Shown piece after piece: positions 14,297 to 63,319 of a stretch of DNA of 64,000 nucleotides. The notes beneath the pieces were generated by a model. The model worked only from the letters and a program-made list of their open reading frames with translations, did not search any database and had not been told where the DNA came from. Source of the stretch: a virus. Its lineage: Duplodnaviria > Caudoviricetes. The translations under genes and the position numbers were made by a program. The stretch's first letter is position 1, and the number at the start of each line of letters is the position of its first letter. The stretch lies in the IMG/VR virus record IMGVR_UViG_2576861733_000002, positions 27,745-91,744 of that record. The stretch is one strand, 5' to 3'.

Positions 14297-14725
14297 TTAC
14301 ACCCTCCCTGCGCGTGCTTTCCGGTAGCATTCCTGCCGCAGTCGGGCTAAGTGCGCTACTTCCCGATCATTGCGCGCCAGAGCCATGATCTCCGTGTATT
14401 TTGCTGCGGCCCGGTTGTAACACCCTTTTTCCTCAAGTGCTTTAGCCGCCTCCATTTGCGGTACCATGATTTTCGGATCCGCCTTTTCTGCCAGGAATGG
14501 CAACTCAATGTCAGGAATATTCGCGCCCGGCACCACGGTGTATGTGTACTGAGTCCCGTTGTGATTACGCGCGAGAATTCCACGCTCCACCAGCTTACGA
14601 AGCTGGCTCCCTGCAGTACCCGGTGCGGTGTCGAATGCTTCACAGACATCCCCCAAAACACAACCGGGTTGCCCGGCAACGAAAACCGCCACGCGGTCAA
14701 TTTGTGTCACTTTTCTGTTGGTCAT
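14297..14725 (-). CDS. wHTH plus PerC-like regulator
   Basis: AKALEEKGCYNRAAAKY resembles the PerC motif. Confidence 0.65.
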   Translation of the reverse strand: MTNRKVTQIDRVAVFVAGQPGCVLGDVCEAFDTAPGTAGSQLRKLVERGILARNHNGTQYTYTVVPGANIPDIELPFLAEKADPKIMVPQMEAAKALEEKGCYNRAAAKYTEIMALARNDREVAHLARLRQECYRKARAGRV

Positions 14726-14738
14726 TGGTCAAAACTCG
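14719..14738 (-). repeat. 20-bp motif CGAGTTTTGACCAATGACCA, copy 1
   Basis: Exact copies at 16223-16242 (-) and 18644-18663 (+); contains the start codon at 14725. Confidence 0.9.
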
Positions 14739-14739
14739 T

Positions 14740-15411
14740 TTAGTTGATATACCCTGCCGCTTTGCGGCGTTTGTATTCCTCCCTCAGCAGCTCCGCTGGG
14801 GTTGGTCCACCAGGATTTTTAGGTCCGGCCAGTTGGCGCCGAACAGGTGGAATTGAGAATCCGTTCTGGATATGTTTCGCCCACTTCGTAAGTAATTTTT
14901 CTGCCAGTTTTTTTAACTCCTTCTCGGTCATCTGACGCTCTACTCCCGTTCGCCGCATTTCGATGCAAATGTGGTACAGCACTGGTTGCGGCCAGGGATA
15001 TTTATCACTGCCGGAAAAGCGGTACGACTCGTTGCGCCAGCGTTTGTATTCAGCCATCACCGCATCCGGAGTGAGACCAAACGGGTTAGCTCCGCTCTCC
15101 GAAACCAGGGCAACAAATTCAGCCAGGTCGGGTGGCCACGTGTTTCCGTCAGCACAGCGCTCCATGCACTGATTGCACACCAGAGTGATTTGCTTCTCAG
15201 TCATTGAACCGATCTGCGCAATCCACATAGCCGAAGGTTCCGTCCCGTTCTTCTGAGTCCATCGGTTCGAAAATACCTCTCCCATGACCTCCCACAGGCG
15301 CCATGCCGTCCGCGTCGCCTGCAAATCCGTTTTCTTGCTCCCAGCGTTCTCTGGCTTCTCGTATCTGCTGAACAGCTCTGGATGCTGTTGGTTCTGCTCG
15401 TACTCCCGCAT
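14740..15411 (-). CDS. Replication protein P-like (start uncertain)
   Basis: WPPDLAEFV motif; follows and overlaps the initiator gene. Confidence 0.7.
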   Translation of the reverse strand: MREYEQNQQHPELFSRYEKPENAGSKKTDLQATRTAWRLWEVMGEVFSNRWTQKNGTEPSAMWIAQIGSMTEKQITLVCNQCMERCADGNTWPPDLAEFVALVSESGANPFGLTPDAVMAEYKRWRNESYRFSGSDKYPWPQPVLYHICIEMRRTGVERQMTEKELKKLAEKLLTKWAKHIQNGFSIPPVRRQLAGPKNPGGPTPAELLREEYKRRKAAGYIN

Positions 15412-16189
15412 GGTTTTTACCTCCGGTTTCAGGTTGTTTTTTCGATCTCACCAGCACGACGTGCCGGGCAAACTTCTGCTCCCACTGGATTTGGGTAAAA
15501 ACTTTGCTTTCCGATTTCCAGTAGGCAGAGAACTCAGCCAGCTCCGTGGGCAGATAATCAGGCTCCGGAAGTTGTATTCCCCACTGGGCGGCGCGCTGAC
15601 GAAAATCTCTGGAGGGCAGCCAGTGTTCGGACATCGTGAATTTTCCGATCGGCTCATTGACGCCCTCCAGGTAACCGGGTGGCGTTGTTTCTTCCGGGGG
15701 GACAACTACCAGCTCGCCCGCGTTAAGAGAGGGGTTTTCTTTTAGATCTGTTTCTGTATCTGTATCTTTATTAGTTGAATTGCCGTTACCATTCTGTTCG
15801 AACGGGCTTTCAACACCCGTTGAACGCTCGTTACCGCTGCGTTGGTCCTTCGTTGATTTTTTCGCTTTTCTCGCTCTTGCTGAGGCTTTACCGGCTGCTG
15901 ACTTCTGATTTACAGAGGAACGGACAGCCTCCAGATCTCTTTCAATCCGTTCCTGCACCCACTCGGTGCCGTTGTCGTTGAAAAACTCTTTTAACGAGGC
16001 TTCAACGGCGCTCCAACGCTCGTTGCTTAGCCGTGCGATTTTTGCCAGACGGTTTTTGGGGATTGCTCGCCCCGTCTGCCAGTAATTGAACATAAGGAGC
16101 AAGTAGGCCCCATGCTCCTCCGTGGACAAATGCATGGTGTCCGCCAGGTAGTCAGCAATGTAAAGTTGCATGTAAGGCAGCGCGGCCAT
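15197..16189 (-). CDS. Replication initiator O-like (YdaU/DUF1376 plus DnaT-like domain)
   Basis: LPYMQLYIADYLADTMHLSTEEHGAYLLL; ELAEFSAYW..QWEQKFARH. Confidence 0.85.
   Translation of the reverse strand: MAALPYMQLYIADYLADTMHLSTEEHGAYLLLMFNYWQTGRAIPKNRLAKIARLSNERWSAVEASLKEFFNDNGTEWVQERIERDLEAVRSSVNQKSAAGKASARARKAKKSTKDQRSGNERSTGVESPFEQNGNGNSTNKDTDTETDLKENPSLNAGELVVVPPEETTPPGYLEGVNEPIGKFTMSEHWLPSRDFRQRAAQWGIQLPEPDYLPTELAEFSAYWKSESKVFTQIQWEQKFARHVVLVRSKKQPETGGKNHAGVRAEPTASRAVQQIREARERWEQENGFAGDADGMAPVGGHGRGIFEPMDSEERDGTFGYVDCADRFND
15740..15850. other. Putative replication origin inside the initiator gene
   Basis: Cluster of GTT(C/G)AAC-like repeats next to AT-rich AGATAC repeats. Confidence 0.45.
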
Positions 16190-16222
16190 GATTACTCCTG
16201 ATGCCCGGTTTCCCGGACGTGA

Positions 16223-16242
16223 TGGTCATTGGTCAAAACTCG
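16223..16242 (-). repeat. 20-bp motif, copy 2 (between cII-like gene and initiator)
   Basis: Exact match to copies 1 and 3. Confidence 0.9.
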
Positions 16243-16244
16243 AA

Positions 16245-16799
16245 TCAAAAACATTGCGGCGCCAGAGTGCTGAGCAGCGCCAGAGCTGGCTCGGAGATTT
16301 CGCGAGGAAGCATTGCATAAAGGGACGTAGCGGCTTCCCATATCTCTTTTTCCAGTCGATGCACTGGCGCGCCGAGTAGCTTTGCCTGGTGCGCTTCCCC
16401 ACATTCTTTAATTGCGCTGGCCACCAGCTCCGCTTCGGTTTTACCGGATCGGAGACCAAACTTTCGGGCAATTTCGATTGGCATTGCGGCTGCAATAGCG
16501 GGCAGGAGATGCATTACGTAGCGGTTATATTTTTCAGAGCCACCATCGTTACGGAGATACCGGAACAGGTTCATCTTGTTGACCGTGATCCCTCGCCCAC
16601 CGATGCGCTGCCATTCCTCAGCCACCAGCCGGGCGATAGTTTCCTGTGCATGCCCCGGTAAGGTTTTCTCCCATACGCGAACAGCATCAAATACGTTCAG
16701 GCGTTTCATATTGTCGCGGCGCCGCGGTTCAATCTGATTTTTTGATTTCAGAGGTGCAAAGGAGTGTTGGTTAAGATTGGACATACCGATCGTTTGCAT
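16245..16799 (-). CDS. CII-like YdaT-family protein
   Basis: Between cro and initiator; NLFRYLRN, AIKECGEAHQAKLLGAP. Confidence 0.75.
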   Translation of the reverse strand: MQTIGMSNLNQHSFAPLKSKNQIEPRRRDNMKRLNVFDAVRVWEKTLPGHAQETIARLVAEEWQRIGGRGITVNKMNLFRYLRNDGGSEKYNRYVMHLLPAIAAAMPIEIARKFGLRSGKTEAELVASAIKECGEAHQAKLLGAPVHRLEKEIWEAATSLYAMLPREISEPALALLSTLAPQCF

Positions 16800-18191: not shown

Positions 18192-18225
18192 GCGAGTTTT
18201 GATCAGCGTCTAACCGGAGTGAATT

Positions 18226-18582
18226 ATGGAATTTGGACTTAAAAGAGTAATTGCCGCAGTCCGCGTGGTTACAGCCTTTAAGCGCATTTACAGCGGTGAA
18301 CCAGTCACTATCACCACTCTCAGTTCAGAGGTGAAATTGTCCGTTTCATACCTCGAACAGATTTTCGCTAAACTTCGCACCGCAGGCATTGTCACCAGCC
18401 AGCGCGGACCAGGTGGCGGCTATTTTCTGGCACATCCCGATGAGGATATCAGCGTTGCGGCGGTGATCCGCGCCGTAACCAACATCCCCGAAGACAGTGA
18501 TTTCCAGCCTGTACTGGAAACCCTCGAAGATATCTCCGTAACACGACTTGCTGCCCGGCAAAGAAAACGCCTGGCCGCATAA
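18226..18582 (+). CDS. Rrf2/IscR-like wHTH protein without Fe-S cysteines
   Basis: SVSYLEQIFAKLRTAGIVTSQRGPGGGYFLA; no Cys in the protein. Confidence 0.85.
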   Translation: MEFGLKRVIAAVRVVTAFKRIYSGEPVTITTLSSEVKLSVSYLEQIFAKLRTAGIVTSQRGPGGGYFLAHPDEDISVAAVIRAVTNIPEDSDFQPVLETLEDISVTRLAARQRKRLAA

Positions 18583-18643
18583 AGCACAAAACCCGCGCAA
18601 GGCGGGTTAAGTACCCGGTCAGCCGACCAAAGCTTTCCGGAAA

Positions 18644-18663
18644 CGAGTTTTGACCAATGACCA
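18644..18663 (+). repeat. 20-bp motif, copy 3 (leader of the exonuclease gene)
   Basis: Exact match to copies 1 and 2; enclosed by a TACCCGG/CCGGGTA stem after a terminator-like hairpin. Confidence 0.9.
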
Positions 18664-18722
18664 ACCGCAGGCGGCTGACATCAGCTGCCGGGTATCTTAC
18701 AACCCAAAGGAACCCGAACGCA

Positions 18723-21204: not shown

Positions 21205-22159
21205 ATACAGCTACGTCTGGAAACCAAAGGGCACAAAATTAAGTATTACTCTGGGGAAAATACGGGATACCAGTATTTCAAAATTATGGATGCGTTATGA
21301 GGAAGAAAAAGCGAAGCGTCATGACGTCATGACTTTTGAGAAATTGTGGGGGATGTTTCTGGCTAGCCCTGCGTTCACCGAACTGGCTCCTCGCACCCAA
21401 ACCGATTACAACCAGCATCAGAAACAACTGTTGGCGGTATTTGGGAAAATGCGGGCTGATGACATTAAAATCGAACAAGTAAGAATTTATATGGATAAAC
21501 GCGGCGTTTCCAGTAAGAACCAAGCTAATCAGGAAGTATCCAGTATGTCCCGAGTTTTTGGATGGGGATTCGAACGAGGCTATGTGAAGGGTAATCCATG
21601 CAGAGGCATTCGTAAATTTACCCTCGTTGATCGTGACGTTTATATTTCTGACGAAGATTATCTGGCGATTTATGAAAATGCACGGACAGAAGTACAGGTC
21701 GCTATGGAAATAGCATATCTTTGTGCGGCGAGAGAAGGTGATGTATTCGATCTTAAAATCCCTGACCTACGTGCCGAAGGTATCTTTATTGAACAGAACA
21801 AAACAGGGAAGAAACAGATTAAGAAGTGGACTCCACGCTTACAAGCGGCTGTTGCCTTGGCAAGCAAGCACTTTGCAAATAAATCATCGGAAGGTTACGT
21901 GATCCCTTCACCTAGCGGTGGAAGGATGAACAAAAAAACATTCAATACTTGGTGGAATAACGCAAAAAAAGCAGCAGCGATAAAACTTGGCAGGAATATA
22001 CTTGGTACATTTCACGATATTAAAGCTAAAGGGATTTCTGATTACGAAGGTAGTAGCCGTGACAAACAACTTTTCTCGGGACACAAAACCGAAAACCAAG
22101 TTCTTGTTTATGACAGGAAAGTAAAGATCACTCCATCACTCGACATGCCAGAAATATAA
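21143..22159 (+). CDS. int: Tyrosine integrase
   Basis: CAAREGD, QNKTG, FHDIKAK, SGHKT, VYDRK catalytic motifs. Confidence 0.93.
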   Translation: MGRPRKDPRDRHLPPRVIKNKYSYVWKPKGTKLSITLGKIRDTSISKLWMRYEEEKAKRHDVMTFEKLWGMFLASPAFTELAPRTQTDYNQHQKQLLAVFGKMRADDIKIEQVRIYMDKRGVSSKNQANQEVSSMSRVFGWGFERGYVKGNPCRGIRKFTLVDRDVYISDEDYLAIYENARTEVQVAMEIAYLCAAREGDVFDLKIPDLRAEGIFIEQNKTGKKQIKKWTPRLQAAVALASKHFANKSSEGYVIPSPSGGRMNKKTFNTWWNNAKKAAAIKLGRNILGTFHDIKAKGISDYEGSSRDKQLFSGHKTENQVLVYDRKVKITPSLDMPEI

Positions 22160-22167
22160 AAAGGTAT

Positions 22168-22190
22168 AAAAAACCCGCAAAAGCGGGTTT
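22168..22190. terminator. Bidirectional terminator after int
   Basis: AAAAACCCGC-AAAA-GCGGGTTT. Confidence 0.75.
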
Positions 22191-22203
22191 AAATTAACTT
22201 AAA

Positions 22204-22353
22204 TCAAGCGGCTTTCTTTTCAGAACAGCCACATACAGGAATAGGAAATGGTTTTCCTTTCTTTGCGTGACGAACAACTCCATCTACACATACAGTGTAG
22301 CGGAAGATGAGTTCGCACGTATTCCCGCATTTTGGACAGGTAGTAGTTGCCAT
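22204..22353 (-). CDS. Small Cys-rich (Zn-ribbon-like) protein, 49 aa
   Basis: MATTTCPKCGNTC...PVCGC; SD GGAG. Confidence 0.55.
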   Translation of the reverse strand: MATTTCPKCGNTCELIFRYTVCVDGVVRHAKKGKPFPIPVCGCSEKKAA

Positions 22354-22527
22354 CAGCAAACTCTCCCTGCATTCCTGTAAACCCATACAGGTTGCGCATT
22401 GTTAGGAGAACCGCTAAACTTTGCTTGTCTAACACAAGTGTAGCGGATGGGTTACCTCCATTACATATCGGAAAGTTTCTCAGGCTTCCCGACCCCCCAA
22501 AGCCCTGTTCTCAGCAGGGCTTTGTTT

Positions 22528-22971
22528 TTAATCTTGTTCTACTGATTCCAAAGGCACAGACCATGGGAGTTTAATGGTGCGCATCGGAGTTCGTTCGAAT
22601 ACAGACTCAAATGCCAGTTTTAATGTGATAGATGTAAAATTTTCGAAAAACCATTCATTTGCCATATAGAATTTTTCATCAATAGGCTCATCCCCTTCTA
22701 TATCATAGAATACATCTATTTTAAGATTGGCTTCGAATGCCAGGCCCTCTTCGTCCGGTTCGTCAGGATTCTCTAGAGCTTCATCGTTATAGCCCTTGAT
22801 AGAAGCCTCTAAAGCCATTTGAGCCCAGCTTTTTTTAAGTTCCTCGTCATACCCAGAAACAAACTGACCATTGCTGACAAGCAGTTTAAAACGCCCGCCT
22901 TCACTATCCTTGTGCTCAACAAACTGTGACGAAGAAATGTCAAAACCTTTGTATTTGATTTTTTCCAACAT
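22528..22971 (-). CDS. SecB-like chaperone (putative TAC component)
   Basis: 147 aa, very acidic, beta-rich pattern ending FERTPMRTIKLPW; start overlaps hicB stop. Confidence 0.65.
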   Translation of the reverse strand: MLEKIKYKGFDISSSQFVEHKDSEGGRFKLLVSNGQFVSGYDEELKKSWAQMALEASIKGYNDEALENPDEPDEEGLAFEANLKIDVFYDIEGDEPIDEKFYMANEWFFENFTSITLKLAFESVFERTPMRTIKLPWSVPLESVEQD

Positions 22972-23429
22972 CAGTGACGAGTCCCTTTTTCAACATTCCC
23001 TATCCACTTAGACTCGCGTTCTGAGGATGAATAATACTCATGAGTGAAAACCTCAGTTCTCTCTCGCTTTTCAAAGTGAAAATGAAATTCTTTCTTATCA
23101 ACAACCTTTTCTTCGATCGCCGTTTTTACATAATCATTGAGACTCTTACCATCGGCACAAGCTGCAAGGTAAGCCTTTTTATGGAGATCTGAACCGATAC
23201 GAATGTTAAACGTACCACTCATAGGCTTCTCTGGCTCTTTGTTTAAGGCCTTGCATGTTTCCAGATAATCATCAACAGCTTCCTCAAAAGCAAGTTGTAA
23301 ACCATCAAGGGTTTCAGCTTCATAAGTCACAAGATCATTTACGCATTGGATTTTCCCATGAAGAACCCTATCTTCTAGAGAAAACTCAACACTTCCAAAA
23401 TAACCTTTAAATTTCAGCATATTACTCAT
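22971..23429 (-). CDS. hicB: HicB antitoxin with a C-terminal extension
   Basis: FKGYFGSVEFS..AFEEAVDDYLETC..SGTFNIRI (RHH) plus about 40 aa aromatic-rich tail. Confidence 0.9.
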   Translation of the reverse strand: MSNMLKFKGYFGSVEFSLEDRVLHGKIQCVNDLVTYEAETLDGLQLAFEEAVDDYLETCKALNKEPEKPMSGTFNIRIGSDLHKKAYLAACADGKSLNDYVKTAIEEKVVDKKEFHFHFEKRERTEVFTHEYYSSSERESKWIGNVEKGTRH

Positions 23430-23670
23430 AATTATCTAGCTCATCTAAAAGAGTCTTAACTTCCTTGAGTACATACCCTTTCACTATATTCCCCGGATGA
23501 GGGCAATGAAATGACACCAACCTACCGTGATCATTGACAAATTTTCTCTTTGAACCAGAACCGTTTAAAACATTAAAACCATACTGACCAAGAAGTGTAA
23601 CAAGCTCTTCCCAGGTAAAATCCTTTGGCAGCGTTCCAAGCCGCTCCCTTAGTTTCTTGCTTTTACTCAT
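23422..23670 (-). CDS. hicA: HicA toxin
   Basis: DFTWEELVTLLGQYGF..GSGSKRKF..FHCPHPGN. Confidence 0.9.
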   Translation of the reverse strand: MSKSKKLRERLGTLPKDFTWEELVTLLGQYGFNVLNGSGSKRKFVNDHGRLVSFHCPHPGNIVKGYVLKEVKTLLDELDNYE

Positions 23671-23696
23671 TCAAGTATATCCCTTGAGAGCATGTT

Positions 23697-23717
23697 TGCA
23701 ACTAAAATCCAGTTGCA
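23697..23717. promoter_or_regulatory. Probable HicB operator
   Basis: TGCAACT-N7-AGTTGCA palindrome 27 bp upstream of hicA. Confidence 0.6.
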
Positions 23718-23975
23718 TGTAATTGTATAGAAAATCCTCGGACAAAACATCACTTTTGGTAGCGATATGAACGAGAGAACTCAATACAACAGATACAAAG
23801 CAGATTTCAATCAGATGGATAAACAGTCTAATGCCATGGCTCCTGCCTCAGGAAAACGTCTCTAAGGAAGTTCCTGCAGTAATAAGGAGTTCTGAATTGA
23901 ATATATTGTAACAAGAAATTTTGAGAGCGGGGAGGAGAGATGTAAAAGACATGTATAACTATCGATTCGTGAAAA

Positions 23976-24007
23976 TATACCAAGCGAATATACCAACACT
24001 ATACCAA
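23976..24007 (+). repeat. TATACCAA x3, probable integrase arm-type sites
   Basis: Copies at 23976, 23989 and 24000 beside the att core. Confidence 0.65.
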
Positions 24008-24055
24008 CAGCAAAAAAACAAAGGGGCTAGCTTATTGCTAACCCCTTGTTTAATC

Positions 24056-24115
24056 TGGCGGAAGCGCAGAGATTCGAACTCTGGAACCCTTTCGGGTCGC
24101 CGGTTTTCAAGACCG
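24056..24115 (-). pseudogene. serT: 3' 60 nt of tRNA-Ser(UGA), serT-like; att junction between the two prophages
   Basis: CGGTCTTGAAAACCGGCGACCCGAAAGGGTTCCAGAGTTCGAATCTCTGCGCTTCCGCCA; 5' acceptor strand and D arm absent; terminator at 24012-24050. Confidence 0.92.
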
Positions 24116-24240
24116 ATAAAAACAACTTGAAAATCATAAAGTTGCATATATAAAAAAGAATATAACTAACAGTAAATTACTTTATATATCATCATGTTGT
24201 GGAATGCTGCCATATAGTTATTCTTCGTCTTTTTTGAATA

Positions 24241-24624
24241 CTACATCACAGGGCAATCATCAAACTCAAGCGTTCGCATATCGTTTACAGCGTGCGTTAC
24301 AACTCCAAAAATTCCATCGTTTTCGTCGGCCGTTTCAGGATCTATTCTCTCAGTGTGCCCGTCTTCTAACCGTTCAAAATGCCGATATGGCCTCAGCCGA
24401 AACCGGCGCAGATGAAATTCACCCGCCAGGCAGCACACAACGACAGAACCGTCGCATGGCGTGAGTGACCGATCAATGATGAGTAGCGCACCCTGCGTGA
24501 TACCGGCGCGCCAGTACGTGTTACCGGCACGCATAAAATATGTTGCATGCGGATGCGAGACAAACTGCTTATCAAGAGATAACCGGTCTTCAATGTAGTC
24601 TTGAGCAGGTGACGGAAATCCCAT
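24241..24624 (-). CDS. UmuD-like S24 protein, probably catalytically inactive
   Basis: GFPSPAQDY..ATYFMRAGNTY (GDSM serine absent)..EFHLRR (lysine absent). Confidence 0.8.
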   Translation of the reverse strand: MGFPSPAQDYIEDRLSLDKQFVSHPHATYFMRAGNTYWRAGITQGALLIIDRSLTPCDGSVVVCCLAGEFHLRRFRLRPYRHFERLEDGHTERIDPETADENDGIFGVVTHAVNDMRTLEFDDCPVM

Positions 24625-24626
24625 AA

Positions 24627-24866: not shown

Positions 24867-24883
24867 GATAGAAGTCTCGATTA

Positions 24884-24903
24884 TACTGGTTATATATACA
24901 GTA
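24884..24903. promoter_or_regulatory. LexA (SOS) box
   Basis: TACTGGTTATATATACAGTA. Confidence 0.88.
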
Positions 24904-24978
24904 TAACCAATTATCAGGTCGATCAAGTTACTTACTGGTGCTAAACTTTGTTCCTTTCAGAATTTACTGATTTTTATA

Positions 24979-55862: not shown

Positions 55863-56119
55863 GCGTATTTCTCCATTGCGGCGGCCAGCGAGCGGGCAGC
55901 GTCCACGATTGCGGGTACCGGCATTTTTTCGAGCCACATGCGATTGATGTGATGTTTTAAACGGTTCTGGTGGTGTGCCGGCAGATCACCGGCACTTTCA
56001 ATTTGTGAATAGACCAGACTCACCTCGGCAGGCCATACTGTTTCAGCGACATCCACCAGCAGCAGGCTTTCCAGTTCGATGATGCGGCGGTATGCGTACT
56101 CGAGTAATGCGTCGCTCAT
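55859..56119 (-). CDS. Hypothetical protein
   Basis: MSDALLEYAYRRI..; coupled to neighbours. Confidence 0.65.
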   Translation of the reverse strand: MSDALLEYAYRRIIELESLLLVDVAETVWPAEVSLVYSQIESAGDLPAHHQNRLKHHINRMWLEKMPVPAIVDAARSLAAAMEKYA

Positions 56120-56120
56120 C

Positions 56121-56465
56121 TCAGTCATTCCAGGCCTCCAGCTCGTTCTGAATTTCTTCGTCGATTTCGTCGTTGCTGGCATCCTCGTTGAGATAGGCCA
56201 TAGCCTCTTTGCGATACTGCTCTCTGCGTTCGTCATACCAGGCCGCAAACTCCGGCGACCAGCCGTAGGTATGCCCGCAAAAGTCTACCCGGGCGTTATC
56301 CTCCGCCATTCGTTCAACCATGCTGTCTGCCGTTGTCAGTGTAACATCACGGATGCAGCCACGCAGGTCGCGCTTGCGCCAGACCGGGCTGAATTTCGAA
56401 TCGCACATATCTCGGAAACGAATTTCATAGCGGCGAATGCACCGGGCCTTTAGCGTTTTGCTCAC
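56121..56465 (-). CDS. Hypothetical protein
   Basis: In operon with overlapping starts and stops. Confidence 0.65.
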   Translation of the reverse strand: MSKTLKARCIRRYEIRFRDMCDSKFSPVWRKRDLRGCIRDVTLTTADSMVERMAEDNARVDFCGHTYGWSPEFAAWYDERREQYRKEAMAYLNEDASNDEIDEEIQNELEAWND

Positions 56466-56935
56466 GATTGCACCCCCTTCACTTGCTCAGATTTTCTGGC
56501 AGCGCGGTCGATGCGCTCAATCTCTGCGGCAATTAGTGCGGCAGCTTTCACCAGGTCGCGACGCTGGGTTGTGGGCTTCCACCATTCAGGCTCCCACGGC
56601 CAGTTCTTCGGCGCTGGATGGCTGTCATACTCCGTGCCACAATCTTCAAGATCCCACATTGCAGCAGCGGCATGGAATGCATAACTGGCAGCAGCGAAAG
56701 CCATCTCTCCGTTGATATGTTTGTCATCATGTTCCGGCGTCCAGCCTTCAACACTCTGCTGGCGCTGGCGTTCGGCGATGATGTCGGTTAGTGCCGCTGA
56801 TAACGCCGCATTCTCAGCAGCCAGTGCTATATGCTCTTTCATTGAGTACAGATAAATGCGCTCTTTGATCGTCAGCTCGCCTGCCGCTTCCAGTGAAGCG
56901 ATAAGCTTTTTCACAGATTCGATATTCATAATCAT
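56462..56935 (-). CDS. Ead/Ea22-like protein
   Basis: LAAENAAL..IAERQRQQSVEGWTPEHDD; paralog of the C-terminal part of 13602-14294. Confidence 0.75.
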   Translation of the reverse strand: MIMNIESVKKLIASLEAAGELTIKERIYLYSMKEHIALAAENAALSAALTDIIAERQRQQSVEGWTPEHDDKHINGEMAFAAASYAFHAAAAMWDLEDCGTEYDSHPAPKNWPWEPEWWKPTTQRRDLVKAAALIAAEIERIDRAARKSEQVKGVQS

Positions 56936-57054
56936 GCCGCCTTAACCAAATAATAAAGACCGATGAGGCCACTGATAATCAGTGCCCAGCCACAAGTGTT
57001 AATCACCAAGTCAAACATAAGCTGTTGAATTTTTGTGTGTTTTTCATATTTCAT
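56932..57054 (-). CDS. 40-aa membrane peptide
   Basis: Translated by hand: MKYEKHTKIQQLMFDLVINTCGWALIISGLIGLYYLVKAA; ATGA overlaps at both ends. Confidence 0.6.
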   Translation of the reverse strand: MKYEKHTKIQQLMFDLVINTCGWALIISGLIGLYYLVKAA

Positions 57055-57296
57055 TTTTCGCCATTCTCTTTCCATTCGCGCCAGTAATTCAGGCGCTCTC
57101 TAAAAAACTCCCGGTACGTTTCCGGCGTCGCATCAAGCTGTTCGGTGATAGCCAGACGAGTCATTTTTTTCTCGTAAAGCTGCCGAATCATCGCGGCGGC
57201 GCGCATGTCGTAATGCTCCTTGAGCTGACATTCTTGCGGCCATAGCGCGCGGTTGTGCGGCAGGCCGGGCGGGAGATAATCCGATTGCCCGGCCAT
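57051..57296 (-). CDS. Hypothetical protein
   Basis: MAGQSDYLPPGLP..FRERLNYWR. Confidence 0.7.
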   Translation of the reverse strand: MAGQSDYLPPGLPHNRALWPQECQLKEHYDMRAAAMIRQLYEKKMTRLAITEQLDATPETYREFFRERLNYWREWKENGEK

Positions 57297-57299
57297 AGG

Positions 57300-57986
57300 T
57301 CACGCCCTGGTGTTTTTTTCCGAGTGAACGTAGAAACGTGGATCGACGCTGGTAAGCGTGAAATGCGGTACCGGCATATCGTCATGCCGTGTAATACCGA
57401 CATAGTTCGACTTCATCATGCCGAACACGCGCCTCTGAAGTTGCTGGAGGGACATCTTTACGCCGGGGTGATGCTTAGCGATAGCGGCGAGAATGGCCTG
57501 ATATGACAAGGTCTTGCCTTTCATCAGCGCGACAAGTTTCTGGGCTGAGAGATCACCATCTTTGGGCTCGTCAGCAGGTGTCTTTGCTGATTCAATCGGC
57601 GTGATGGTTTCCAGCAGCATGCGGCAGCGCCCGCGGGTGCCGACTCGGTGCCCGGTTTTCTTGTCGTAGTTTTCCTTGCTGCCGGCAGTCCACACGGTCG
57701 CAGTTTCGCGAATTTTAACGGTGTGCTGACCATCAGAACGGATAACCACCGCTGTGTGGGTTTTGCGGAATCTGGTTGCGCTGGTTTCAGGTGTGGCTTT
57801 TTTGGCTTTTGCTGTTGCTTTGGTGGCAACGCGGGGTTTAACAACCTGAACCGGGCGCGGCGGTGGCACATAAGCTGAGCGACTACGGGCGCGAGCACCA
57901 GCATTCATCTGCCACAAAATAACGGCGGTGTAGTCGCAGCCATCATCTTCATGTTTGGTGCGATCGGTATAAATAATTTCGGTCAT
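57300..57986 (-). CDS. Hypothetical protein with possible C-terminal wHTH
   Basis: Start lies within the GAGGAAAGACCAATG motif. Confidence 0.7.
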   Translation of the reverse strand: MTEIIYTDRTKHEDDGCDYTAVILWQMNAGARARSRSAYVPPPRPVQVVKPRVATKATAKAKKATPETSATRFRKTHTAVVIRSDGQHTVKIRETATVWTAGSKENYDKKTGHRVGTRGRCRMLLETITPIESAKTPADEPKDGDLSAQKLVALMKGKTLSYQAILAAIAKHHPGVKMSLQQLQRRVFGMMKSNYVGITRHDDMPVPHFTLTSVDPRFYVHSEKNTRA

Positions 57987-58026
57987 TGGTCTTTCCTCTT
58001 TGGTTTTAAAAGCGCTGGTCAGGCGC
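57981..58026 (-). repeat. GCGCCTGACCAGCG..GAGGAAAGACCA(A)TG element, copy 1
   Basis: Also at 60622-60661 (-) and 63278-63319 (+). Confidence 0.88.
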
Positions 58027-58028
58027 GG

Positions 58029-59420
58029 TTAAAATGCATCGGTTCTGTACTTCTCTGAATGTTTTCTTGCCTGTTTACGTGGCTTAGCGGCCTCCAGTTG
58101 AATGCGTGTTTTTTCTTTGCCGACATGCTGATCCATTGGCAGGAAGTGGCCGTTTCTGAACTCCTGATAAATTACGGTCCCGGCGGCGGCAAAGCGGCAT
58201 TTGCCCAGAATGACTTCTGCCACGCCAGCGGCAGGGCTTTCCGGGTTATAAACTTCGTCCCGGTACAGGAAAAGAATGCTGTCGGCATCCTGCTCGATAG
58301 AGCCGGAATCACGCAGGTCGGACATTACCGGGCGGCGCTGTGCCGCCGGACGGGCGTCAACTGCACGTGATAACTGGCTAAGGGCAAACACCGGCGTATG
58401 CAGGCGCATCGCCATCGTTTTGAGATTTCGGGATATATGGGCAATAGCCAGATCGTTACGCTCTGCTTTGGGCTTTTTAACCAGTCCCATATAATCGATC
58501 GCAATCATCCCCAGATGCGGGTAGCGGCGTTTGTGCGTCTCGGCAATGGCTCGGATTTGTTCTATGGTCAGATCTGTAGCATCAACGATCCAGATATCGC
58601 GGTCATTCAGCAATGTGAGTGCATTTGTCAGGCGCGCCCAGTCCTCATCATCCATATCGCGAGGATTACGCAGGCGTGACACGGACATATTCCCGTTCCC
58701 TGCAAGTGAACGCTCGACGATCTGCCCGGCCTGCATCTCCATGCTGAATATCAGCGCCCCGCTACGCCGTTCTGTAACGCTATGGACAATGCTCAGCGTA
58801 AATTCTGTTTTTCCCATACCTGGGCGACCAGCCACTACAATCAAATCGGTGGTGTTTATTCCGCCCATTGCATGATCAAGATCGTCAATGCCCGTAAGCA
58901 GATTCCGCACCGATGCATCACCATCCATACGCTTCTGCACCGTGTCCATGTACGCTGGCAAAAGTTCAGAAATATGGATCGGCTGAACATCGCCGGTATC
59001 GGCGGTCATATCCAGCAGCTGTGCGACGGCGTTCTCCGTTACCAGATCACGCTGCTCCTGGTTCACTGCGTTACGAATACTGTCTGCGCCTTCCTGTAGC
59101 AGCTTTGCCATTTCGCGGCTGCGCCATGCCTTAACCATTTTTCCGGCGTAGCCTTTGAGGTTTGCCACGGTCGCAGGCTGTTTGCAGATTTCGGCCAGAT
59201 TTCCCAATGTCCCCTGCCCGCCAAGAGCTTCACTCACAAACAGCAAATCGATCATGCCATTTGTCAGCGCCTGCTTTTTAATTTCGCAAAATGCGCGGCG
59301 GTAAAAGCTTGTGCTGAATGCCACGTCCGGTGTTGTTGCGATAACGTCGAACGCGTCAGGCGTGGCACCACCGTTAATCAGTCCGGCCAGCACGATGGAT
59401 TCCAGTTGCTGCGGAGTCAT
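58029..59420 (-). CDS. DnaB-like replicative helicase
   Basis: AGRPGMGKT, IDYMGL, SQLSR, DLRDSGSIEQDAD. Confidence 0.95.
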   Translation of the reverse strand: MTPQQLESIVLAGLINGGATPDAFDVIATTPDVAFSTSFYRRAFCEIKKQALTNGMIDLLFVSEALGGQGTLGNLAEICKQPATVANLKGYAGKMVKAWRSREMAKLLQEGADSIRNAVNQEQRDLVTENAVAQLLDMTADTGDVQPIHISELLPAYMDTVQKRMDGDASVRNLLTGIDDLDHAMGGINTTDLIVVAGRPGMGKTEFTLSIVHSVTERRSGALIFSMEMQAGQIVERSLAGNGNMSVSRLRNPRDMDDEDWARLTNALTLLNDRDIWIVDATDLTIEQIRAIAETHKRRYPHLGMIAIDYMGLVKKPKAERNDLAIAHISRNLKTMAMRLHTPVFALSQLSRAVDARPAAQRRPVMSDLRDSGSIEQDADSILFLYRDEVYNPESPAAGVAEVILGKCRFAAAGTVIYQEFRNGHFLPMDQHVGKEKTRIQLEAAKPRKQARKHSEKYRTDAF

Positions 59421-60400
59421 AACGATCCTTCCCGGGTACTACGTAAAGTTTCTGGTTTCATCAGATAATCAAAACTGGCGCGCCATCCGCCATTAGCGCC
59501 AAAGTAAAAATCAGGCGCATCGGTACGGAATTTTTCGAAGTAACCCAGAAATGCCCCTGTGGTTTTATTTTTCATATAGGCCGCCAGGCGAATAATCATG
59601 CGGCGTCGGTCAACATCAAGTTCAGCGGCAGGAAGCGAATCGGCAAAAATTTCGTTGTAGCCGTTCATAACGGCTTCCGGATCAATGTTGGACTCTGTGG
59701 TTGCCCAAGCCTCAGCATCCGCGAGATAACCGTCGAATCGATTTACACGGCAGATGTTTGCCGGTTTCGGAAAACCGGAGCCACGGCGGCGCCACGTTGC
59801 CAGCACCCAGCGGATCACCAGTTGAATCTCTGCCACCGTATACGCTTCACGCGTATGGGTTGGTGTCAGCATCAGCACGAAGGGCTTTACGTCACGGCAA
59901 CGTGTCTGGGTTAGTCGGTTATAAAACTCCAGAATTTTTTTAGCGTCAGCGAGAATTAATTCCTCGCCCTCCCCCCAAAGGGGGTAAGGGGGATCTTCTG
60001 GATCTATGGTTGGTTCAGAAGAGTGACTGGTTCTGGTGCCACCTGCTGGCACAGGGGGTGTGCTTTCTGACGGCATACCTGTGTTTTTTGGCGGCACAGG
60101 GGCTATGCTTTTTGGCGGCACAGGGTTATCAAGATTTAGCGTATAAACGTTTGATGCGTTGCCCTTTCCGTTTTTTACGCCCGGACGATTGAGCTTTTGA
60201 AGCAATCCCATATCGATCAGGGCATCAATGTGTTCGCGCACTGCACTACGGCTGCACTCGCAATGATCGGCAATATGTTGATATGACGGCCAGCATTCGC
60301 CGTTATCGTTGGCGTTATCAGCCAATTTAATCAGCACCAGCTTGCGAATGGGGTTGCCCGTTTTAATACTCATTGCGCGGGCTGTTAGAGTCATGCTCAT
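59417..60400 (-). CDS. Replication initiator (HTH)
   Basis: RKLVLIKLADNANDNGECWPSYQHIA; WRASFDYL. Confidence 0.88.
   Translation of the reverse strand: MSMTLTARAMSIKTGNPIRKLVLIKLADNANDNGECWPSYQHIADHCECSRSAVREHIDALIDMGLLQKLNRPGVKNGKGNASNVYTLNLDNPVPPKSIAPVPPKNTGMPSESTPPVPAGGTRTSHSSEPTIDPEDPPYPLWGEGEELILADAKKILEFYNRLTQTRCRDVKPFVLMLTPTHTREAYTVAEIQLVIRWVLATWRRRGSGFPKPANICRVNRFDGYLADAEAWATTESNIDPEAVMNGYNEIFADSLPAAELDVDRRRMIIRLAAYMKNKTTGAFLGYFEKFRTDAPDFYFGANGGWRASFDYLMKPETLRSTREGSL
60030..60126. repeat. Iterons of the putative origin
   Basis: TTTTGGCGGCACAGGG x2 plus GGCACAGGG/GGCATAC variants inside the initiator gene. Confidence 0.65.
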
Positions 60401-60402
60401 AA

Positions 60403-60624
60403 TCAGATCCCCAGCGATTCAGCCAACTGGCGGCAGGCAATTTCGTAATCTTTCGGAGTGAGAAAGACGCACTCTTCCAACATTTCAGCTTTGCGCTGCT
60501 CGTAGGCCTCCCATTTTTTGGCAGAAAGTCGCTCTTCAAAAATATCCCGCACATCGCTAACCGGAACGGGTTCACCGTTCAGGCGAAAGCCGTTCCGCCA
60601 GGTGATACGATCTTGAGTTTTCAT
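60403..60624 (-). CDS. Hypothetical protein
   Basis: Start lies within the GAGGAAAGACCAATG motif. Confidence 0.7.
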   Translation of the reverse strand: MKTQDRITWRNGFRLNGEPVPVSDVRDIFEERLSAKKWEAYEQRKAEMLEECVFLTPKDYEIACRQLAESLGI

Positions 60625-60661
60625 TGGTCTTTCCTCGCACTTTTAAACGCTGGTCAGGCGC
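60622..60661 (-). repeat. GACCA element, copy 2
   Basis: AGCGCCTGACCAGCGTTTAAAAGTGCGAGGAAAGACCAATG. Confidence 0.88.
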
Positions 60662-61089
60662 TGTGTTTCCTGCATGGCCTGCAAGGCCCGTGCAACTTGC
60701 TGCGGTCTGTCTCTGGCATCGAGCAATAGCGCAATAATCGCTGCTGCAAATTCTTTGATCGCCATGCAGATCAAATACTGAGTAGTCATTCCCAGTCTGG
60801 CGTAGCGTTCTGCCGGAAGCGCAGCTTCCATCGCTTTAGCCAGCGCCAGCGTTTTGTTTCTCGCCGCTTTCGTGTCGCCACGCAGCCAGCGAAATATCTG
60901 CTGCCGGTTGTTGTTGATGGCGCGCCAGTCGGCCAGGCCGTTGGCATCTTCCATCTGATGCAACTTAACACCGCCAGTGTTACCGCCAAGGCGGAACCAC
61001 ATACGGGTGATCTCGATTGCTACATACTCCTGGCCGTACTCGGCCGCCCAGCTAAAAATCTCTCTTTTCAGTTCTTCAAGGCTCTCCAC
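60643..61089 (-). CDS. CII-like YdaT-family protein
   Basis: WAAEYGQEYVAIEI..NNRQQIFRWLRGDT. Confidence 0.8.
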   Translation of the reverse strand: MESLEELKREIFSWAAEYGQEYVAIEITRMWFRLGGNTGGVKLHQMEDANGLADWRAINNNRQQIFRWLRGDTKAARNKTLALAKAMEAALPAERYARLGMTTQYLICMAIKEFAAAIIALLLDARDRPQQVARALQAMQETQRLTSV

Positions 61090-61152
61090 TTCCCGCGTCT
61101 CCTGTCGCTGCAAATCTGATTACGCTTAATCAGATTTCAAATTCGCATGTTG

Positions 61153-61386
61153 TTAAGCTGCATTTCTGTCCGGCACGCCATCATTCGGATTTGGGTAAAG
61201 GTCTGGACGGAAACTGTGCGGGGTTACTATGTAACCAGTAGCAGCAGCCCATTTCAGTGCTGTTGCCGCCCCTAGCAGGCATTTACCAGATGCGACTCGG
61301 CTAACGTACCCCTGTGTTTCGCCCACCAGCGCGGCAAAGTCCTGCTGACGGACTCCAGAGGTCTTTAGATAATTTTTGAGATCCAT
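61153..61386 (-). CDS. cro: Cro-like (YdaS-type) regulator
   Basis: QQDFAALVGETQGYVSRV..FRPDLY. Confidence 0.85.
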   Translation of the reverse strand: MDLKNYLKTSGVRQQDFAALVGETQGYVSRVASGKCLLGAATALKWAAATGYIVTPHSFRPDLYPNPNDGVPDRNAA

Positions 61387-61417
61387 AATCTCCTCCTCGG
61401 TGTATGTGACACATGAA

Positions 61418-61483
61418 TATTAGTTTCACGAATATAAGATTGTCAATAGTTGCACGATTGGGCTGAAATTAATTTTGCGAATA
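61418..61483. promoter_or_regulatory. OR operators (TATT(C/A)GT-N3-ACGAATA-like)
   Basis: 61418-61434 and 61467-61483; related sites at 62021-62073. Confidence 0.6.
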
Positions 61484-61494
61484 ATATGGTCGCC

Positions 61495-61950
61495 ATGAGA
61501 AAGAAAACACTTGATGCAGCTGAGTCAGATGCAGCCCAGCGTCTACGGGATGCCTGGGACAAGAAAAAAATTACCTTGCGCCTTACTCAGGAAAAGGCGG
61601 CGGATGCCCTTGGCTTCAGTACTCAAGCAACAGTAAGCCATTATCTGAACGGAAATATTCCACTGAATACAGATGCGGCCTTGAAATTCGCCGCGTTGCT
61701 TGGCGTAAAACCGGAAGAATTACGCCCCGATCTTGCTGAACTTATGAACTATGTAAGGAAAAGCGGTACACATGTAGAGGATTACTCATCAGCAGGATGG
61801 CGCCTGCTTAAGCCAGAAGAGGCCGAGCTAATCGAACTATATGACAGACTTCCACAAAGCGAAAAAGAACGACATCTATCTGAATTAAAAGATAAAGTAA
61901 GTGGTTTTGATCGTCTTTTTGAAGAGCTTCTGGCGGCAAGAAAGCAGTAA
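61495..61950 (+). CDS. CI-like repressor without peptidase domain
   Basis: LTQEKAADALGFSTQATVSHYLNG; 151 aa. Confidence 0.88.
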   Translation: MRKKTLDAAESDAAQRLRDAWDKKKITLRLTQEKAADALGFSTQATVSHYLNGNIPLNTDAALKFAALLGVKPEELRPDLAELMNYVRKSGTHVEDYSSAGWRLLKPEEAELIELYDRLPQSEKERHLSELKDKVSGFDRLFEELLAARKQ

Positions 61951-62020
61951 TTGCCCATCATTTTGTAAATCCCGTTCATCGGGATTTTTTTTCGTCAAAA
62001 AATCAACAATCTACATAAAA

Positions 62021-62074
62021 TATTCGTATTACGATTATTTTTATCTTGACCACGAATATGCTCATAACTAATAT
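62021..62074 (+). promoter_or_regulatory. OL operators and PL (TTGACC-17-TAATAT)
   Basis: -35 at 62046-62051, -10 at 62069-62074, overlapped by operator-like repeats. Confidence 0.7.
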
Positions 62075-62099
62075 TCACTTCACCAACAACGCACTAACC

Positions 62100-62760
62100 A
62101 CGCGGCAGTTGTTCAGAAAAAGTTCTGACGGTCTGGAAAGACAGACGTTCGAGGAAAGACCAGCTTGCGGGAGGCGCAGCCAGCGCTGAGGGACGGTTCC
62201 AATACTGACCAGTGGCGGAACGCCGGATAACGTAACCGGCACTAATGCCCGGGGCGCCGGCAGTACGCTGACATGCGGGGAAGACCGCAACAACGCAACA
62301 TGAGAGCGCATTCCATCGTTATCAGTTATGGGTCTGGTGGTTAAATGCAAAATGGCGGAGTGCGCTCCCAGTTGCGGTGAACAGGGGTTGAGCTGGTTTC
62401 CCTGCCAGCTTTCCGGTTCGATTCCGGACACCCAACCGAAAAATTGCTGTGTGTAGTCTTTGCCCATCTCCCGTGATGGGCCTTTTTTTCAACACAGTTA
62501 CGATTTTACTGCCGCGATAGCGTCCCCAAAGGGCGAGAGCTCACCAGCAGTGTGACGCCGGGAAAGACCGGGAGGAAAGACCAACGGGCCTGACCAGCCC
62601 TGACAGCCGGGAGCAGACCGGCAGATGTAAAAAAACCCACCGAAGTGGGTTCTTTTACCCGGACTGGTGACCAAACCGCGCCGGAGGTGCACAAGGGACC
62701 AACCTTGTGCGAGGAAAGACCAATGCCTGACAGAGCCAAACACTGATCGGCTCTGAGTAT
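62100..62760 (+). ncRNA. Long structured PL leader RNA with multiple GACC(A) hairpins
   Basis: No plus-strand ORF of 60 aa or more; many hairpins; seven GACCA in about 570 nt. Confidence 0.65.
62442..62489 (+). ncRNA. RprA 3'-half-like sRNA
   Basis: AATTGCTGTGTGTAGTCTTTGCCCATCTCCCGTGATGGGCCTTTTTTT versus E. coli RprA 3' end as recalled, AATTGCTGTGTGTAGTCTTTGCCCATCTCCCACGATGGGCTTTTTTT. Confidence 0.8.
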
Positions 62761-62777
62761 ATCACAGAGGAGTCGCT

Positions 62778-63101
62778 ATGGAAGCGCTTACCATCCCCGT
62801 CACGCTGTACGTTCAGTACCGCCTTGCCCCGTATGCAAAACAAAAAATCGTAGTCAGTACAATCGATTTTTCAAATACCGATCCTGATGAGTACCTCCTG
62901 CTTGAAACAAAGGTGATTGAGATCACCATCTCGCCACCCGACACCATCGACATCATTGGCGCGCAGGTGGACAACCTTCGCCAGCGCAAAGCCAGTATTG
63001 CCTCAAGTGCTGATCGCCAGATAGCTGTAATCGACGATGAGATCCAGCAACTGCTATGCATCGACCATTCCCCGGAAGATAAACACGAAATTCCTTTCTA
63101 G
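62778..63101 (+). CDS. Hypothetical early protein
   Basis: SD GAGGAG; C-terminal coiled coil. Confidence 0.75.
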   Translation: MEALTIPVTLYVQYRLAPYAKQKIVVSTIDFSNTDPDEYLLLETKVIEITISPPDTIDIIGAQVDNLRQRKASIASSADRQIAVIDDEIQQLLCIDHSPEDKHEIPF

Positions 63102-63110
63102 GGGGGCACT

Positions 63111-63299
63111 GTGAATGATCTGGGCATTACCCGTTACACCTGCACTGCTGGCGATCGTCGCGGAGAGTTTGGCGACTGCATGGAAAAGGATAAAAACGGC
63201 CGTTATGTGACCTTTAGCCAGCATGATCGGCAAGTGAAACACCTGCAAAAAGAAATTGAATCACTTCGTAAAAAACTGCGCCTGACCAGCGCTATTTAA
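63111..63299 (+). CDS. Hypothetical early protein
   Basis: MEKDKNGRYVTFSQH motif. Confidence 0.65.
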   Translation: MNDLGITRYTCTAGDRRGEFGDCMEKDKNGRYVTFSQHDRQVKHLQKEIESLRKKLRLTSAI

Positions 63300-63319
63300 A
63301 CCAAAGAGGAAAGACCATG
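63278..63319 (+). repeat. GACCA element, copy 3
   Basis: GCGCCTGACCAGCGCTATTTAAACCAAAGAGGAAAGACCATG. Confidence 0.88.

Follow-up and report, generated by a model that had tools for sequence, protein, structure and literature searches.

The window analyzed here, the final 64 kb (64,000 nucleotides, nt) of IMG/VR provirus record IMGVR_UViG_2576861733_000002 (positions 27,745 to 91,744), contains two prophages, termed prophage 1 and prophage 2, whose early operons carry short repeats built around a GACCA core. Early proteins are almost entirely different between the two types of phage to which these prophages belong, and the locus raises the question of what the repeats, which occupy the same gene junctions in both, are there to do. 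Our answer, put forward with a little better than even confidence, is that each prophage encodes an antisense small RNA whose seed would be complementary to its own repeated motif, and that early genes would be controlled by RNA-RNA pairing. Type A denotes the motif class of prophage 1 (a 20-mer), and type B that of prophage 2 (a 12-mer plus a hairpin). We class both prophages as Rac-like (YdaS/YdaT-type) lambdoid because the annotation of one Escherichia coli relative includes YdaS, YdaT, RepO and a replicative helicase. PHROG scans identify a RecE-like exonuclease in each of them.

Repeated motifs in the early operons

The 20-mer of prophage 1, CGAGTTTTGACCAATGACCA, occurs in exact form at 14719-14738 (-), 16223-16242 (-) and 18644-18663 (+); none of 100 dinucleotide-preserving shuffles yields three matches. 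The 12-mer of prophage 2, GAGGAAAGACCA, occurs in exact form at 57987 (-), 60625 (-), 63306 (+), 62151 (+), 62572 (+) and 62711 (+), compared with a shuffle mean of 0.22. The GACCA motifs described in an earlier sequence-only reading are thus present and non-random, with both counts far above shuffle expectation. That reading had counted three 12-mers, all of which are found, but the total is six; the three additional copies (62151, 62572 and 62711) lie within the noncoding leader of the early-left (pL) operon. It had also listed a variant of the 20-mer at 18193, which has only the first 10 bases in common with the motif and is not retained. A further element of prophage 2, GCGCCTGACCAGCG, is exact at 58013 (-), 60648 (-) and 63278 (+), and its variant GGGCCTGACCAGCC at 62586 (+) reads GGGC-CTGACCA-GCCC, with both stem sides altered.

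By PHROG and Pfam scans, the rightward operon of prophage 1 comprises a cro-like gene, a cII-like gene (16245-16799), an O-like gene (15197-16189), a P-like gene (14740-15411) and a gene for a PerC-like activator (14297-14725), and the leftward operon a cI-like gene, small genes, an Rrf2-like gene and then the gene for the RecE-like exonuclease. The motif copy after the cII-like gene (16223-16242, minus strand) is located 34 nt before the start of the O-like gene, and the copy after the P-like gene (14719-14738, minus strand) contains the ATG at 14725 with which the PerC-like activator gene begins; both are predicted trans targets. The third copy (18644-18663, plus strand) is in the recE 5' leader and overlaps the candidate antisense RNA gene, and is thus referred to as a cis copy.

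The same scans place cro-like, YdaT/cII-like (60643-61113), 73-amino-acid (aa), O-like, DnaB-like and 228-aa genes on the rightward side of prophage 2, and a cI-like gene, a 700-nt leader, a 107-aa gene, a 62-aa gene and a RecE-like gene on the other. Three sites are predicted trans targets, each consisting of a hairpin followed by the 12-mer and a start codon. After the YdaT/cII-like gene (60625-60662, minus strand), the hairpin at 60646-60662 and the 12-mer at 60625-60636 precede the start codon of the 73-aa gene (ATG at 60624). The site that follows the DnaB-like helicase gene (57987-58026, minus strand) has its hairpin at 58012-58026 and its 12-mer at 57987-57998, ahead of the start codon of the 228-aa gene (ATG at 57986). 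Before the RecE-like gene (63278-63319, plus strand), the hairpin at 63278-63292 is followed by the 12-mer at 63306-63317 and an ATG at 63317-63319. The remaining copies are in the pL leader. The leader-proximal 12-mer (62151-62162, plus strand) is without a start codon, and a 48-aa open reading frame (ORF) begins here in some relatives. The leader array (62558-62600, plus strand) consists of a GAAAGA-loop hairpin (62558-62571), a 12-mer (62572-62583) and the hairpin GGGC-CTGACCA-GCCC (62586-62600), with no gene start. The leader-distal copy (62688-62725, plus strand), in which a GACCAA-loop hairpin (62688-62711) abuts GAGGAAAGACCAATG (62711-62725), is the cis copy of this prophage and overlaps its candidate antisense RNA gene. 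In both prophages, PHROG scans bear out the three positions originally proposed, which follow the cII/YdaT-like gene, follow the replication genes and precede the RecE-like gene. The bipartite layout of a loop site plus a ribosome-binding site and the specificity for phage type are likewise upheld.

The further proposal that all copies stand at or just upstream of start codons holds for the junction copies of prophage 2, but in prophage 1 only the ATG at 14725 opens a real gene. The ATG at 16229 opens a 25-codon ORF that is out of frame with the O-like gene starting at 16189. The ATG at 18657 is 66 nt upstream of, and in frame with, the RecE start given in the annotation of Citrobacter phage Chris1, whose own copy has ATA where the motif of prophage 1 has ATG; the RecE start of prophage 1 is probably at 18723. 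Among the loci collected for comparison, 34 of 147 type A copies have a motif ATG that begins an ORF of at least 50 aa and 111 one that begins a short closed ORF, and 2 are truncated by the end of the locus. Of 471 copies of the type B 12-mer, 324 have an ORF of at least 50 aa beginning within a few bases, 86 have a short closed ORF, 55 have no start codon and 6 are truncated. The downstream ORFs with 50 aa or more form 18 families. The two upstream proteins that had been described as ending in RLTS have the endings QRLTSV and LRLTSAI. A reading of the motif as a sigma-70 promoter was rejected, since by eye there is no -10 box at the proper spacing on either strand.

Candidate antisense RNAs

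A candidate antisense small RNA overlaps one motif copy in each prophage. The two RNAs would be approximately 105-120 nt long and would be transcribed from the strand opposite the early-left operon, from genes located just upstream of recE (prophage 1) or of the first pL gene (prophage 2). The type B candidate (62629-62749, minus strand; ends predicted) begins with a 5' hairpin, continues with an unpaired stretch whose sequence is complementary to GAGGAAAGACCAATG and two hairpins that each carry a UUGGUC loop, and ends in a terminator. It is preceded by a predicted extended -10 promoter at 62756-62766, which reads TGTGATATACT on the minus strand. The terminator is a GC-rich stem at approximately 62651-62634 followed by seven U; the U-run is assigned to the antisense strand because on the sense strand it is an A-run located 5' of the stem. 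In an alignment of 27 unique type B sequences, the -10 hexamer, a 10-nt seed core and both loop motifs are invariant and the stems are variable. TATA.T of the -10 is found in 27/27, and three Serratia loci carry TGATATAAT, a consensus extended -10, at this position. RNAalifold predicts 36 pairs for the alignment, 18 of them changed on both sides, and leaves the seed unpaired in the consensus fold.

The type A candidate (18582-18687, minus strand; ends predicted) has a comparable layout, with a 5' hairpin, an unpaired complement of the 20-mer, a UUGGUC-loop hairpin and a terminator. The terminator stem at 18608-18590 is followed by a U-rich tail and is also picked up on the minus strand by a simple terminator scan. 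The predicted -10 hexamer at 18694-18699 is TAAGAT on the minus strand, with TG before it. Among 61 unique relatives, this hexamer is TAAGAT in 58, TAAAAT in two and TACAAT in one, always conforming to TA..AT. The layout as a whole is common to 61 unique contexts, and alignment and folding of 33 unique relatives leave the seed unpaired and place a UUGGUC loop in the next hairpin.

A covariance model (R1) built solely from type B sequences connects the two units. Both strands of the whole window were searched with filters off; the E-values are rough. The best match is the type B locus itself (62621-62756, minus strand, 117.6 bits), the prophage 2 sequence having been part of the training set, and the second-best is the prophage 1 unit (18577-18653, minus strand, 26 bits, E ~1e-5). 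When R1 was applied to 41 type A sources (of approximately 120), 38 gave one match each at E <=0.01, all within the previously predicted stretch and on the predicted strand; the other three (L019, L038 and L251) gave none. As judged from these matches, the type A and type B units are one family. The third-best match in the window (9417-9508, plus strand, 18.7 bits, E ~0.001) is in prophage 1 outside the early region and involves mainly the terminator part.

Neither candidate corresponds to a described Rfam family: in searches at permissive thresholds no family, including the Rfam C4 antisense RNA, reaches its gathering score. The best sub-threshold matches are on the antisense strand, to rsmX (24 bits, gathering 56) and isrB (23 bits, gathering 35), and also to istR, at 62630-62715, and to isrB (18.5 bits, gathering 35) and isrK (15.6 bits, gathering 50) at 18586-18688. 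They sit exactly at the leader-distal copy of prophage 2 and the recE-proximal copy of prophage 1. Separately, the recE-proximal hairpin of prophage 2 (63278-63292), read on the minus strand, is followed by AGTTTTTT and is scored as terminator-like. A very short second antisense RNA over the recE start of prophage 2 is conceivable; the A-run is not conserved in the relatives inspected.

Complementarity and proposed mode of action

Whole-sequence RNA duplex energies proved uninformative, with a background median near -45, and were replaced by the longest perfect complementarity in a scan of 106 translation initiation regions (TIRs) of the window. The type B candidate matches its trans sites over 19 nt (start of the 73-aa gene), 15 nt (228-aa gene) and 12 nt (recE), compared with at most 9 nt at other TIRs. 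The type A candidate matches over 25 nt at the start of the PerC-like gene and 20 nt before the O-like gene, against a background of at most 11 nt. Each type is complementary to its own targets, and the duplexes at the five trans sites span the Shine-Dalgarno sequence and the AUG. Additionally, the mRNA loop UGACCA is complementary to UGGUCA in the second hairpin loop of the small RNA.

The loops of the mRNA hairpins are also distinctive across relatives. In type B loci, CTGACCA is found as a hairpin loop (stem of at least 3 pairs) in 269 of 472 occurrences, on 30 distinct stems, and GACCAA in 130 of 921, on 29 distinct stems; permuted control loops are in hairpins in 1/154, 16/134, 2/193 and 15/65 occurrences. 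Such loops also form tandem hairpin arrays in the noncoding pL leader, away from any gene junction. Constant loops on varied arms that still pair argue for a folded single strand, and against a duplex-DNA site or a mere patch of homology. The suggestion that GACCA is presented in a hairpin loop thus draws support from the relatives but not from single hairpins: individually, the junction hairpins are weak, with stems of 4-5 bp and no thermodynamic signal, and the start regions are unstructured.

These features suggest a model in which the motif copies elsewhere in the early operons are target boxes for the small RNA, placed behind the cII-like gene, behind the replication genes, ahead of recE and, in relatives, ahead of an xis-like gene. 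The mRNA GACCA hairpin loop would kiss the UUGGUC loop of the small RNA as a first contact, and pairing would then block the Shine-Dalgarno sequence and start codon. Translation of chosen replication, recombination and excision genes would be repressed: the gene that opens the replication module, the next gene beyond that module, recE and, in relatives, the excision gene. The RNA may also act in cis on the early-left leader. The boxes and hairpin arrays of that leader, which have no coding role, could serve as decoys that titrate the RNA once the early-left promoter fires. By analogy with known phage systems, we infer that the outcome would be to quiet leaky expression in the lysogen and to act against incoming phages of the same box type.

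Several considerations weigh against this model. The promoters, the RNA ends and the antisense RNA itself are predictions. No RNA sequencing run is listed for 56000-64000 of the window, and one wastewater run matches 0.08 of its words. Neither the type A nor the type B unit has a convincing -35 box, a simple sigma-70 scan lists neither promoter, and the leader of the 107-aa gene overlaps the type B -10, whose conservation could thus serve the sense strand. Complementarity to the remaining copies is automatic for any transcript antisense to one copy of a repeat. Clean covariation between seed and targets is not seen among the single-base variants of type A: in 22 locus pairs a change in the RNA-gene copy gives a U-C mismatch, and two scanned seed variants are almost confined to the RNA-gene copy, in a sampling biased toward the exact motif. 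The frequent occurrence of ATA in the RNA copy versus ATG in the targets is G.U-compatible and is explained equally well by the targets' need for a start codon. Finally, every locus was collected through an exact motif match, and conservation is consequently over-stated.

Evidence on which strand is under selection favors the antisense strand, with caveats. In hairpins 2 and 3, at the 16 pairs most often found in a Watson-Crick state, G.U departures on the antisense strand (52 cells, 11 pairs) exceed A.C departures (7 cells, 6 pairs), which would be G.U on the sense strand; the structure used for this count was predicted on the antisense alignment. The type B consensus fold has an energy of -35.6 kcal/mol on the antisense strand versus -16.0 on the sense strand, and the minimum free energy of single sequences is lower for the antisense strand in 27/27 type B and 33/33 type A cases, although much of this raw advantage is a matter of composition. 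Dinucleotide-shuffle z-scores, calculated for the first 20 sequences of each type, differ modestly: -7.16 (antisense) versus -6.30 (sense) for type B, with the antisense strand lower in 14/20, and -3.08 versus -2.18 for type A, lower in 16/20. The junction mRNA hairpins, with 20 G.U on the sense strand versus 13 A.C, show no strand signal.

Distribution, orientation and mosaicism

IMG/VR was scanned for exact matches, and each motif type was found in at least 119 stretches. Exact copies of the bipartite type B element are present in 12 stretches of nine genomes, belonging to three Serratia species, Enterobacter sichuanensis, two Citrobacter species, Rosenbergiella, Raoultella and Shimwellia, which we take to represent three enterobacterial families. 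The 12-mer is identical across all nine, adjoining coding sequence that has diverged, and such identity requires purifying selection on the sequence itself; it is what a seed locked by several targets would show. The system is rare in E. coli: of 5,426 genomes, 9 match one candidate RNA region and 1 matches the other, the matched stretches carrying no annotation, and no such motif system is present in the Rac prophage of E. coli K-12. In annotated relatives this set of sites recurs, with an additional one before the xis-like gene. Type A is carried by the isolated phages Citrobacter phage Chris1 and Klebsiella phage Kp4865-4, and type B by BUCT708 and BUCT709. The latter (OM816835.1) is deposited as a Stenotrophomonas phage; it and its twin BUCT708 have a complete type B early region otherwise seen in Enterobacterales prophages, and the host assignment may merit a second look.

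The orientation of the copies is highly regular. Among loci with at least two copies, 85 of 97 type B loci are divergent and 12 have all copies on one strand; for type A the figures are 16 and 6 of 22. Convergent or mixed arrangements are found in neither type. The expectation that copies lie on the sense strand, with a strand bias in relatives, is thus borne out, as orientation tracks the divergent early operons in 97/97 type B and 22/22 type A loci. An orientation rule linked to replication was considered and rejected. If, as we assume by analogy with lambda, the replication origin is at the O-like gene, the two copies of the rightward (pR-side) operon flank it and yet share one orientation, which indicates a rule of transcription rather than replication.

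The boxes are also places of module exchange, or mosaic joints. When the 200 nt on each side of the boxes were clustered, 453 type B copies gave 28 upstream and 25 downstream clusters joined in 45 combinations, and 144 type A copies gave 10 upstream and 12 downstream clusters joined in 22. This fits an established proposal for phage mosaicism, in which short conserved boundary sequences mark the joints between modules (PMC3029335).

Alternative explanations

It may be that the boxes are nothing other than module-boundary linkers or portable translation-start cassettes, spread by RecET-type recombination and by the advantage of a good ribosome-binding site, with no trans-acting reader; the antisense unit, if real, would then act only in cis on the pL leader. 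We consider this a live rival, if an unlikely one in its exclusive form, and it may hold together with an antisense RNA. The mosaic joints are as it predicts, as are the boundary sequences proposed in general terms (PMC3029335). The RecE-like exonucleases of both phages and the ORFs that start within a few bases of most type B copies are equally in keeping with it, and the orphan leader copies look like recombination scars, the copy at 62711 being followed by ATGCCTG as at the recE start. A homology patch should however be uniformly conserved, and here the loops are constant while the stems vary and still pair, in a way that control loops rarely do. Nor does it account for tandem hairpin arrays at no gene junction, for the small fraction of type A copies (34/147) that start an ORF of at least 50 aa, or for a 12-mer that selection has kept identical across three bacterial families beside diverged coding sequence. 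Recombination boundaries, already mentioned as an alternative in the sequence-only reading, are thus apt as a description but not as an explanation of constant loops with varying stems.

The boxes could instead be operators of a phage or host RNA-binding protein that contacts a hairpin loop and a site near the ribosome-binding site, as do CsrA or T4 RegA. This was the partner originally envisaged, and we now regard it as improbable. The bipartite sites, their confinement to the sense strand and a GACCA core that is single-stranded everywhere, whether in loops on varied stems or in unstructured TIRs, would all suit a protein. So might a basic protein of 228 aa (57300-57986, PHROG 4183, no Pfam match) that contains an arginine-rich stretch and that among the matches listed is encoded in 60/119 type B loci but 0/119 type A loci. 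However, no known RNA-binding domain is found among 10 early proteins searched against Pfam and 20 searched against PHROGs, and the loops CTGACCA, ATGACCA and GACCAA lack the GGA of CsrA sites, which occurs only within the Shine-Dalgarno part of the 12-mer. Phage types with almost no early proteins in common nonetheless share the GACCA/UUGGUC logic, and a complementary RNA encoded on the spot, as predicted here, supplies the partner and explains the type-specific flanks without a protein. More improbable still is that the hairpins are nut-like boxB sites for processive antitermination through early-operon terminators. In the N/nut systems, an arginine-rich N protein is encoded early in pL, and boxA lies beside boxB in promoter-proximal position, upstream of the first terminators. 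The boxes resemble these sites in being small GC-rich hairpins with constant loops, on the sense transcript of both early operons and specific to phage type. There are also intrinsic terminators in the pL leader that would have to be passed (62462-62481 plus a T-run, and the hairpin at approximately 62634-62651), and the first ~60 nt of the pL transcript, near-identical in 62 stretches (60 distinct), are accompanied by GAAAGA-loop hairpins. The difficulty is one of position and partner: the junction sites follow cII and the replication genes, a long way from the promoters, and overlap ribosome-binding sites, there are four or more of them per phage, and no arginine-rich N-like protein is found among the first pL ORFs of 10 loci or the early proteins of the window. 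A boxA-like element is not recognized by eye, no formal search for it having been made.

Two narrower candidates were rejected. A DNA operator for YdaT/cII is not supported, as the motif is unlike the published inverted repeat TTGATT-N6-AATCAA (PMC11879457, PMC9986795), and constant loops with varying arms argue against a duplex-DNA site. A leader peptide or N-like protein encoded across the hairpin array was also set aside and the array is treated as noncoding, since the arginine-rich ORFs are not conserved in start codon, frame or length. Such frames, of 50-89 aa, do extend across the leader array in some relatives (for example L152, L172 and L137; clusters 8-10 of the downstream ORFs), starting from the leader 12-mer copy or from an ATG in a hairpin loop.

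Additional features of the region

The pL leader of prophage 2 has further features of its own. The start of the pL transcript (62078-62145, plus strand) has the near-identical first ~60 nt mentioned above, maintained despite different promoters and downstream genes, and then a GAAAGA-loop hairpin whose loop recurs in the leader array; it may be a cis-acting signal for antitermination or processing. Farther along (62391-62491, plus strand) is an RprA-like small RNA with its own terminator, which scores 61.9 bits against a gathering score of 70 (E ~1e-6) and is carried by many relatives. Part of a 1271-base leader query spanning this RNA finds a match of 90-95% identity in nearly all E. coli genomes, presumably the chromosomal rprA gene. 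The element looks like a phage-borne copy or mimic of this host rpoS regulator. Just upstream of the RprA-like part, a stretch resembling a tRNA T-arm, GGTTCGATTCCGG (62420-62445, plus strand), is present in one E. coli relative (L248) and absent in BUCT709 (L249); ARAGORN calls no tRNA in the window.

Elsewhere in the window, prophage 1 has two full-length matches to the Rfam family STnc100, at 6829-7036 and 8664-8861 (both minus strand), with scores of 100.9 and 88.8 bits against a gathering score of 47, approximately 1.8 kb apart. The two prophages, which share one provirus record, are separated by a stretch of low GC content (0.36-0.45) at 22000-28000.

Relationship to known systems

Antisense RNA regulators of phages are known in kind, and the one proposed here for Rac-like phages appears to be undescribed. 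In the literature library searched, neither the long motifs nor such an RNA in Rac-like phages is described, and CUGACCA appears only in unrelated papers. If the proposal is correct, lambdoid prophages of enteric bacteria would have an unannotated regulatory layer beside the repressor, in the form of a base-pairing RNA with a small early-gene regulon, a kind of regulator for which P1/P7 and P4 are as yet the main examples. It would account for intergenic identity across bacterial families despite exchange of the surrounding genes, and would link gene regulation to the placement of mosaic joints. A direct test is feasible, since isolated phages carry both types.

A broader proposal can be made more tentatively, and we think it rather doubtful as a whole. 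The candidates could be members of an undescribed small-RNA family across Enterobacterales that constitutes an RNA-level circuit for immunity and timing. Such a circuit would comprise one antisense RNA whose three UUGGUC modules silence scattered replication, recombination and excision genes, bipartite contacts (pairing at the ribosome-binding site together with a loop-loop kiss), seed types that can be interchanged (A, B and perhaps others) and define RNA heteroimmunity groups, and a pL leader that works as an induction-triggered sponge, with the boxes doubling as module-swap hot spots that shape mosaicism.

The closest analogue in layout, and in layout only, is found in the start-associated sequences, or SAS, and their extended form, ESAS, of Cluster K mycobacteriophages. 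These are also short exact motifs, located immediately upstream of start codons in a subset of the non-structural genes, nearly all in one orientation, approximately half with an upstream inverted repeat, and with a consensus specific to the subcluster (PMC3203893, PMC12699233). They differ in host phylum, in having a 13-nt motif and in being present in many more copies; the mean of 9.08 in K4 is the lowest except for K8, which has none (PMC12699233). The function of SAS was still described as unknown in 2025 (PMC12699233), and a complementary RNA is not proposed in the passages that treat these sequences (PMC3203893, PMC12699233). The candidates reported here may therefore provide a lead, namely to seek a regulator opposite one of the SAS copies.

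Other known systems are comparable. Lambda OOP, P22 sar and BTP1 STnc6030 are, like the candidates, small antisense transcripts in the operons of temperate phages that affect lysogeny or superinfection (PMC12197685, PMC7067206), and the BTP1 antisense RNA gives superinfection exclusion (PMC7067206). These RNAs are described as acting on the transcript that they overlap, whereas the candidates also have exact complementary boxes at distant genes. The c4 RNA of P1/P7, encoded in the immI region, represses antirepressor synthesis (PMC12197685). It too is a small phage RNA, in which complementary segments placed in loops pair around a ribosome-binding site and immunity is type-specific by sequence (PMC12197685). 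The candidates differ from c4 in showing no homology of sequence or structure to it (no Rfam family at threshold), in belonging to lambdoid early operons, in having four or more targets dispersed over two divergent operons and in being antisense to a target copy of their own. The CI RNA of satellite phage P4, to which the candidates are likewise not homologous, pairs with the repeated boxes seqA and seqC in the early transcript, and replication genes are kept silent in the lysogen (PMC4825925). It is processed from the sense leader and works by premature termination of transcription, whereas the candidates are predicted to be separate antisense transcripts whose boxes lie over translation starts.

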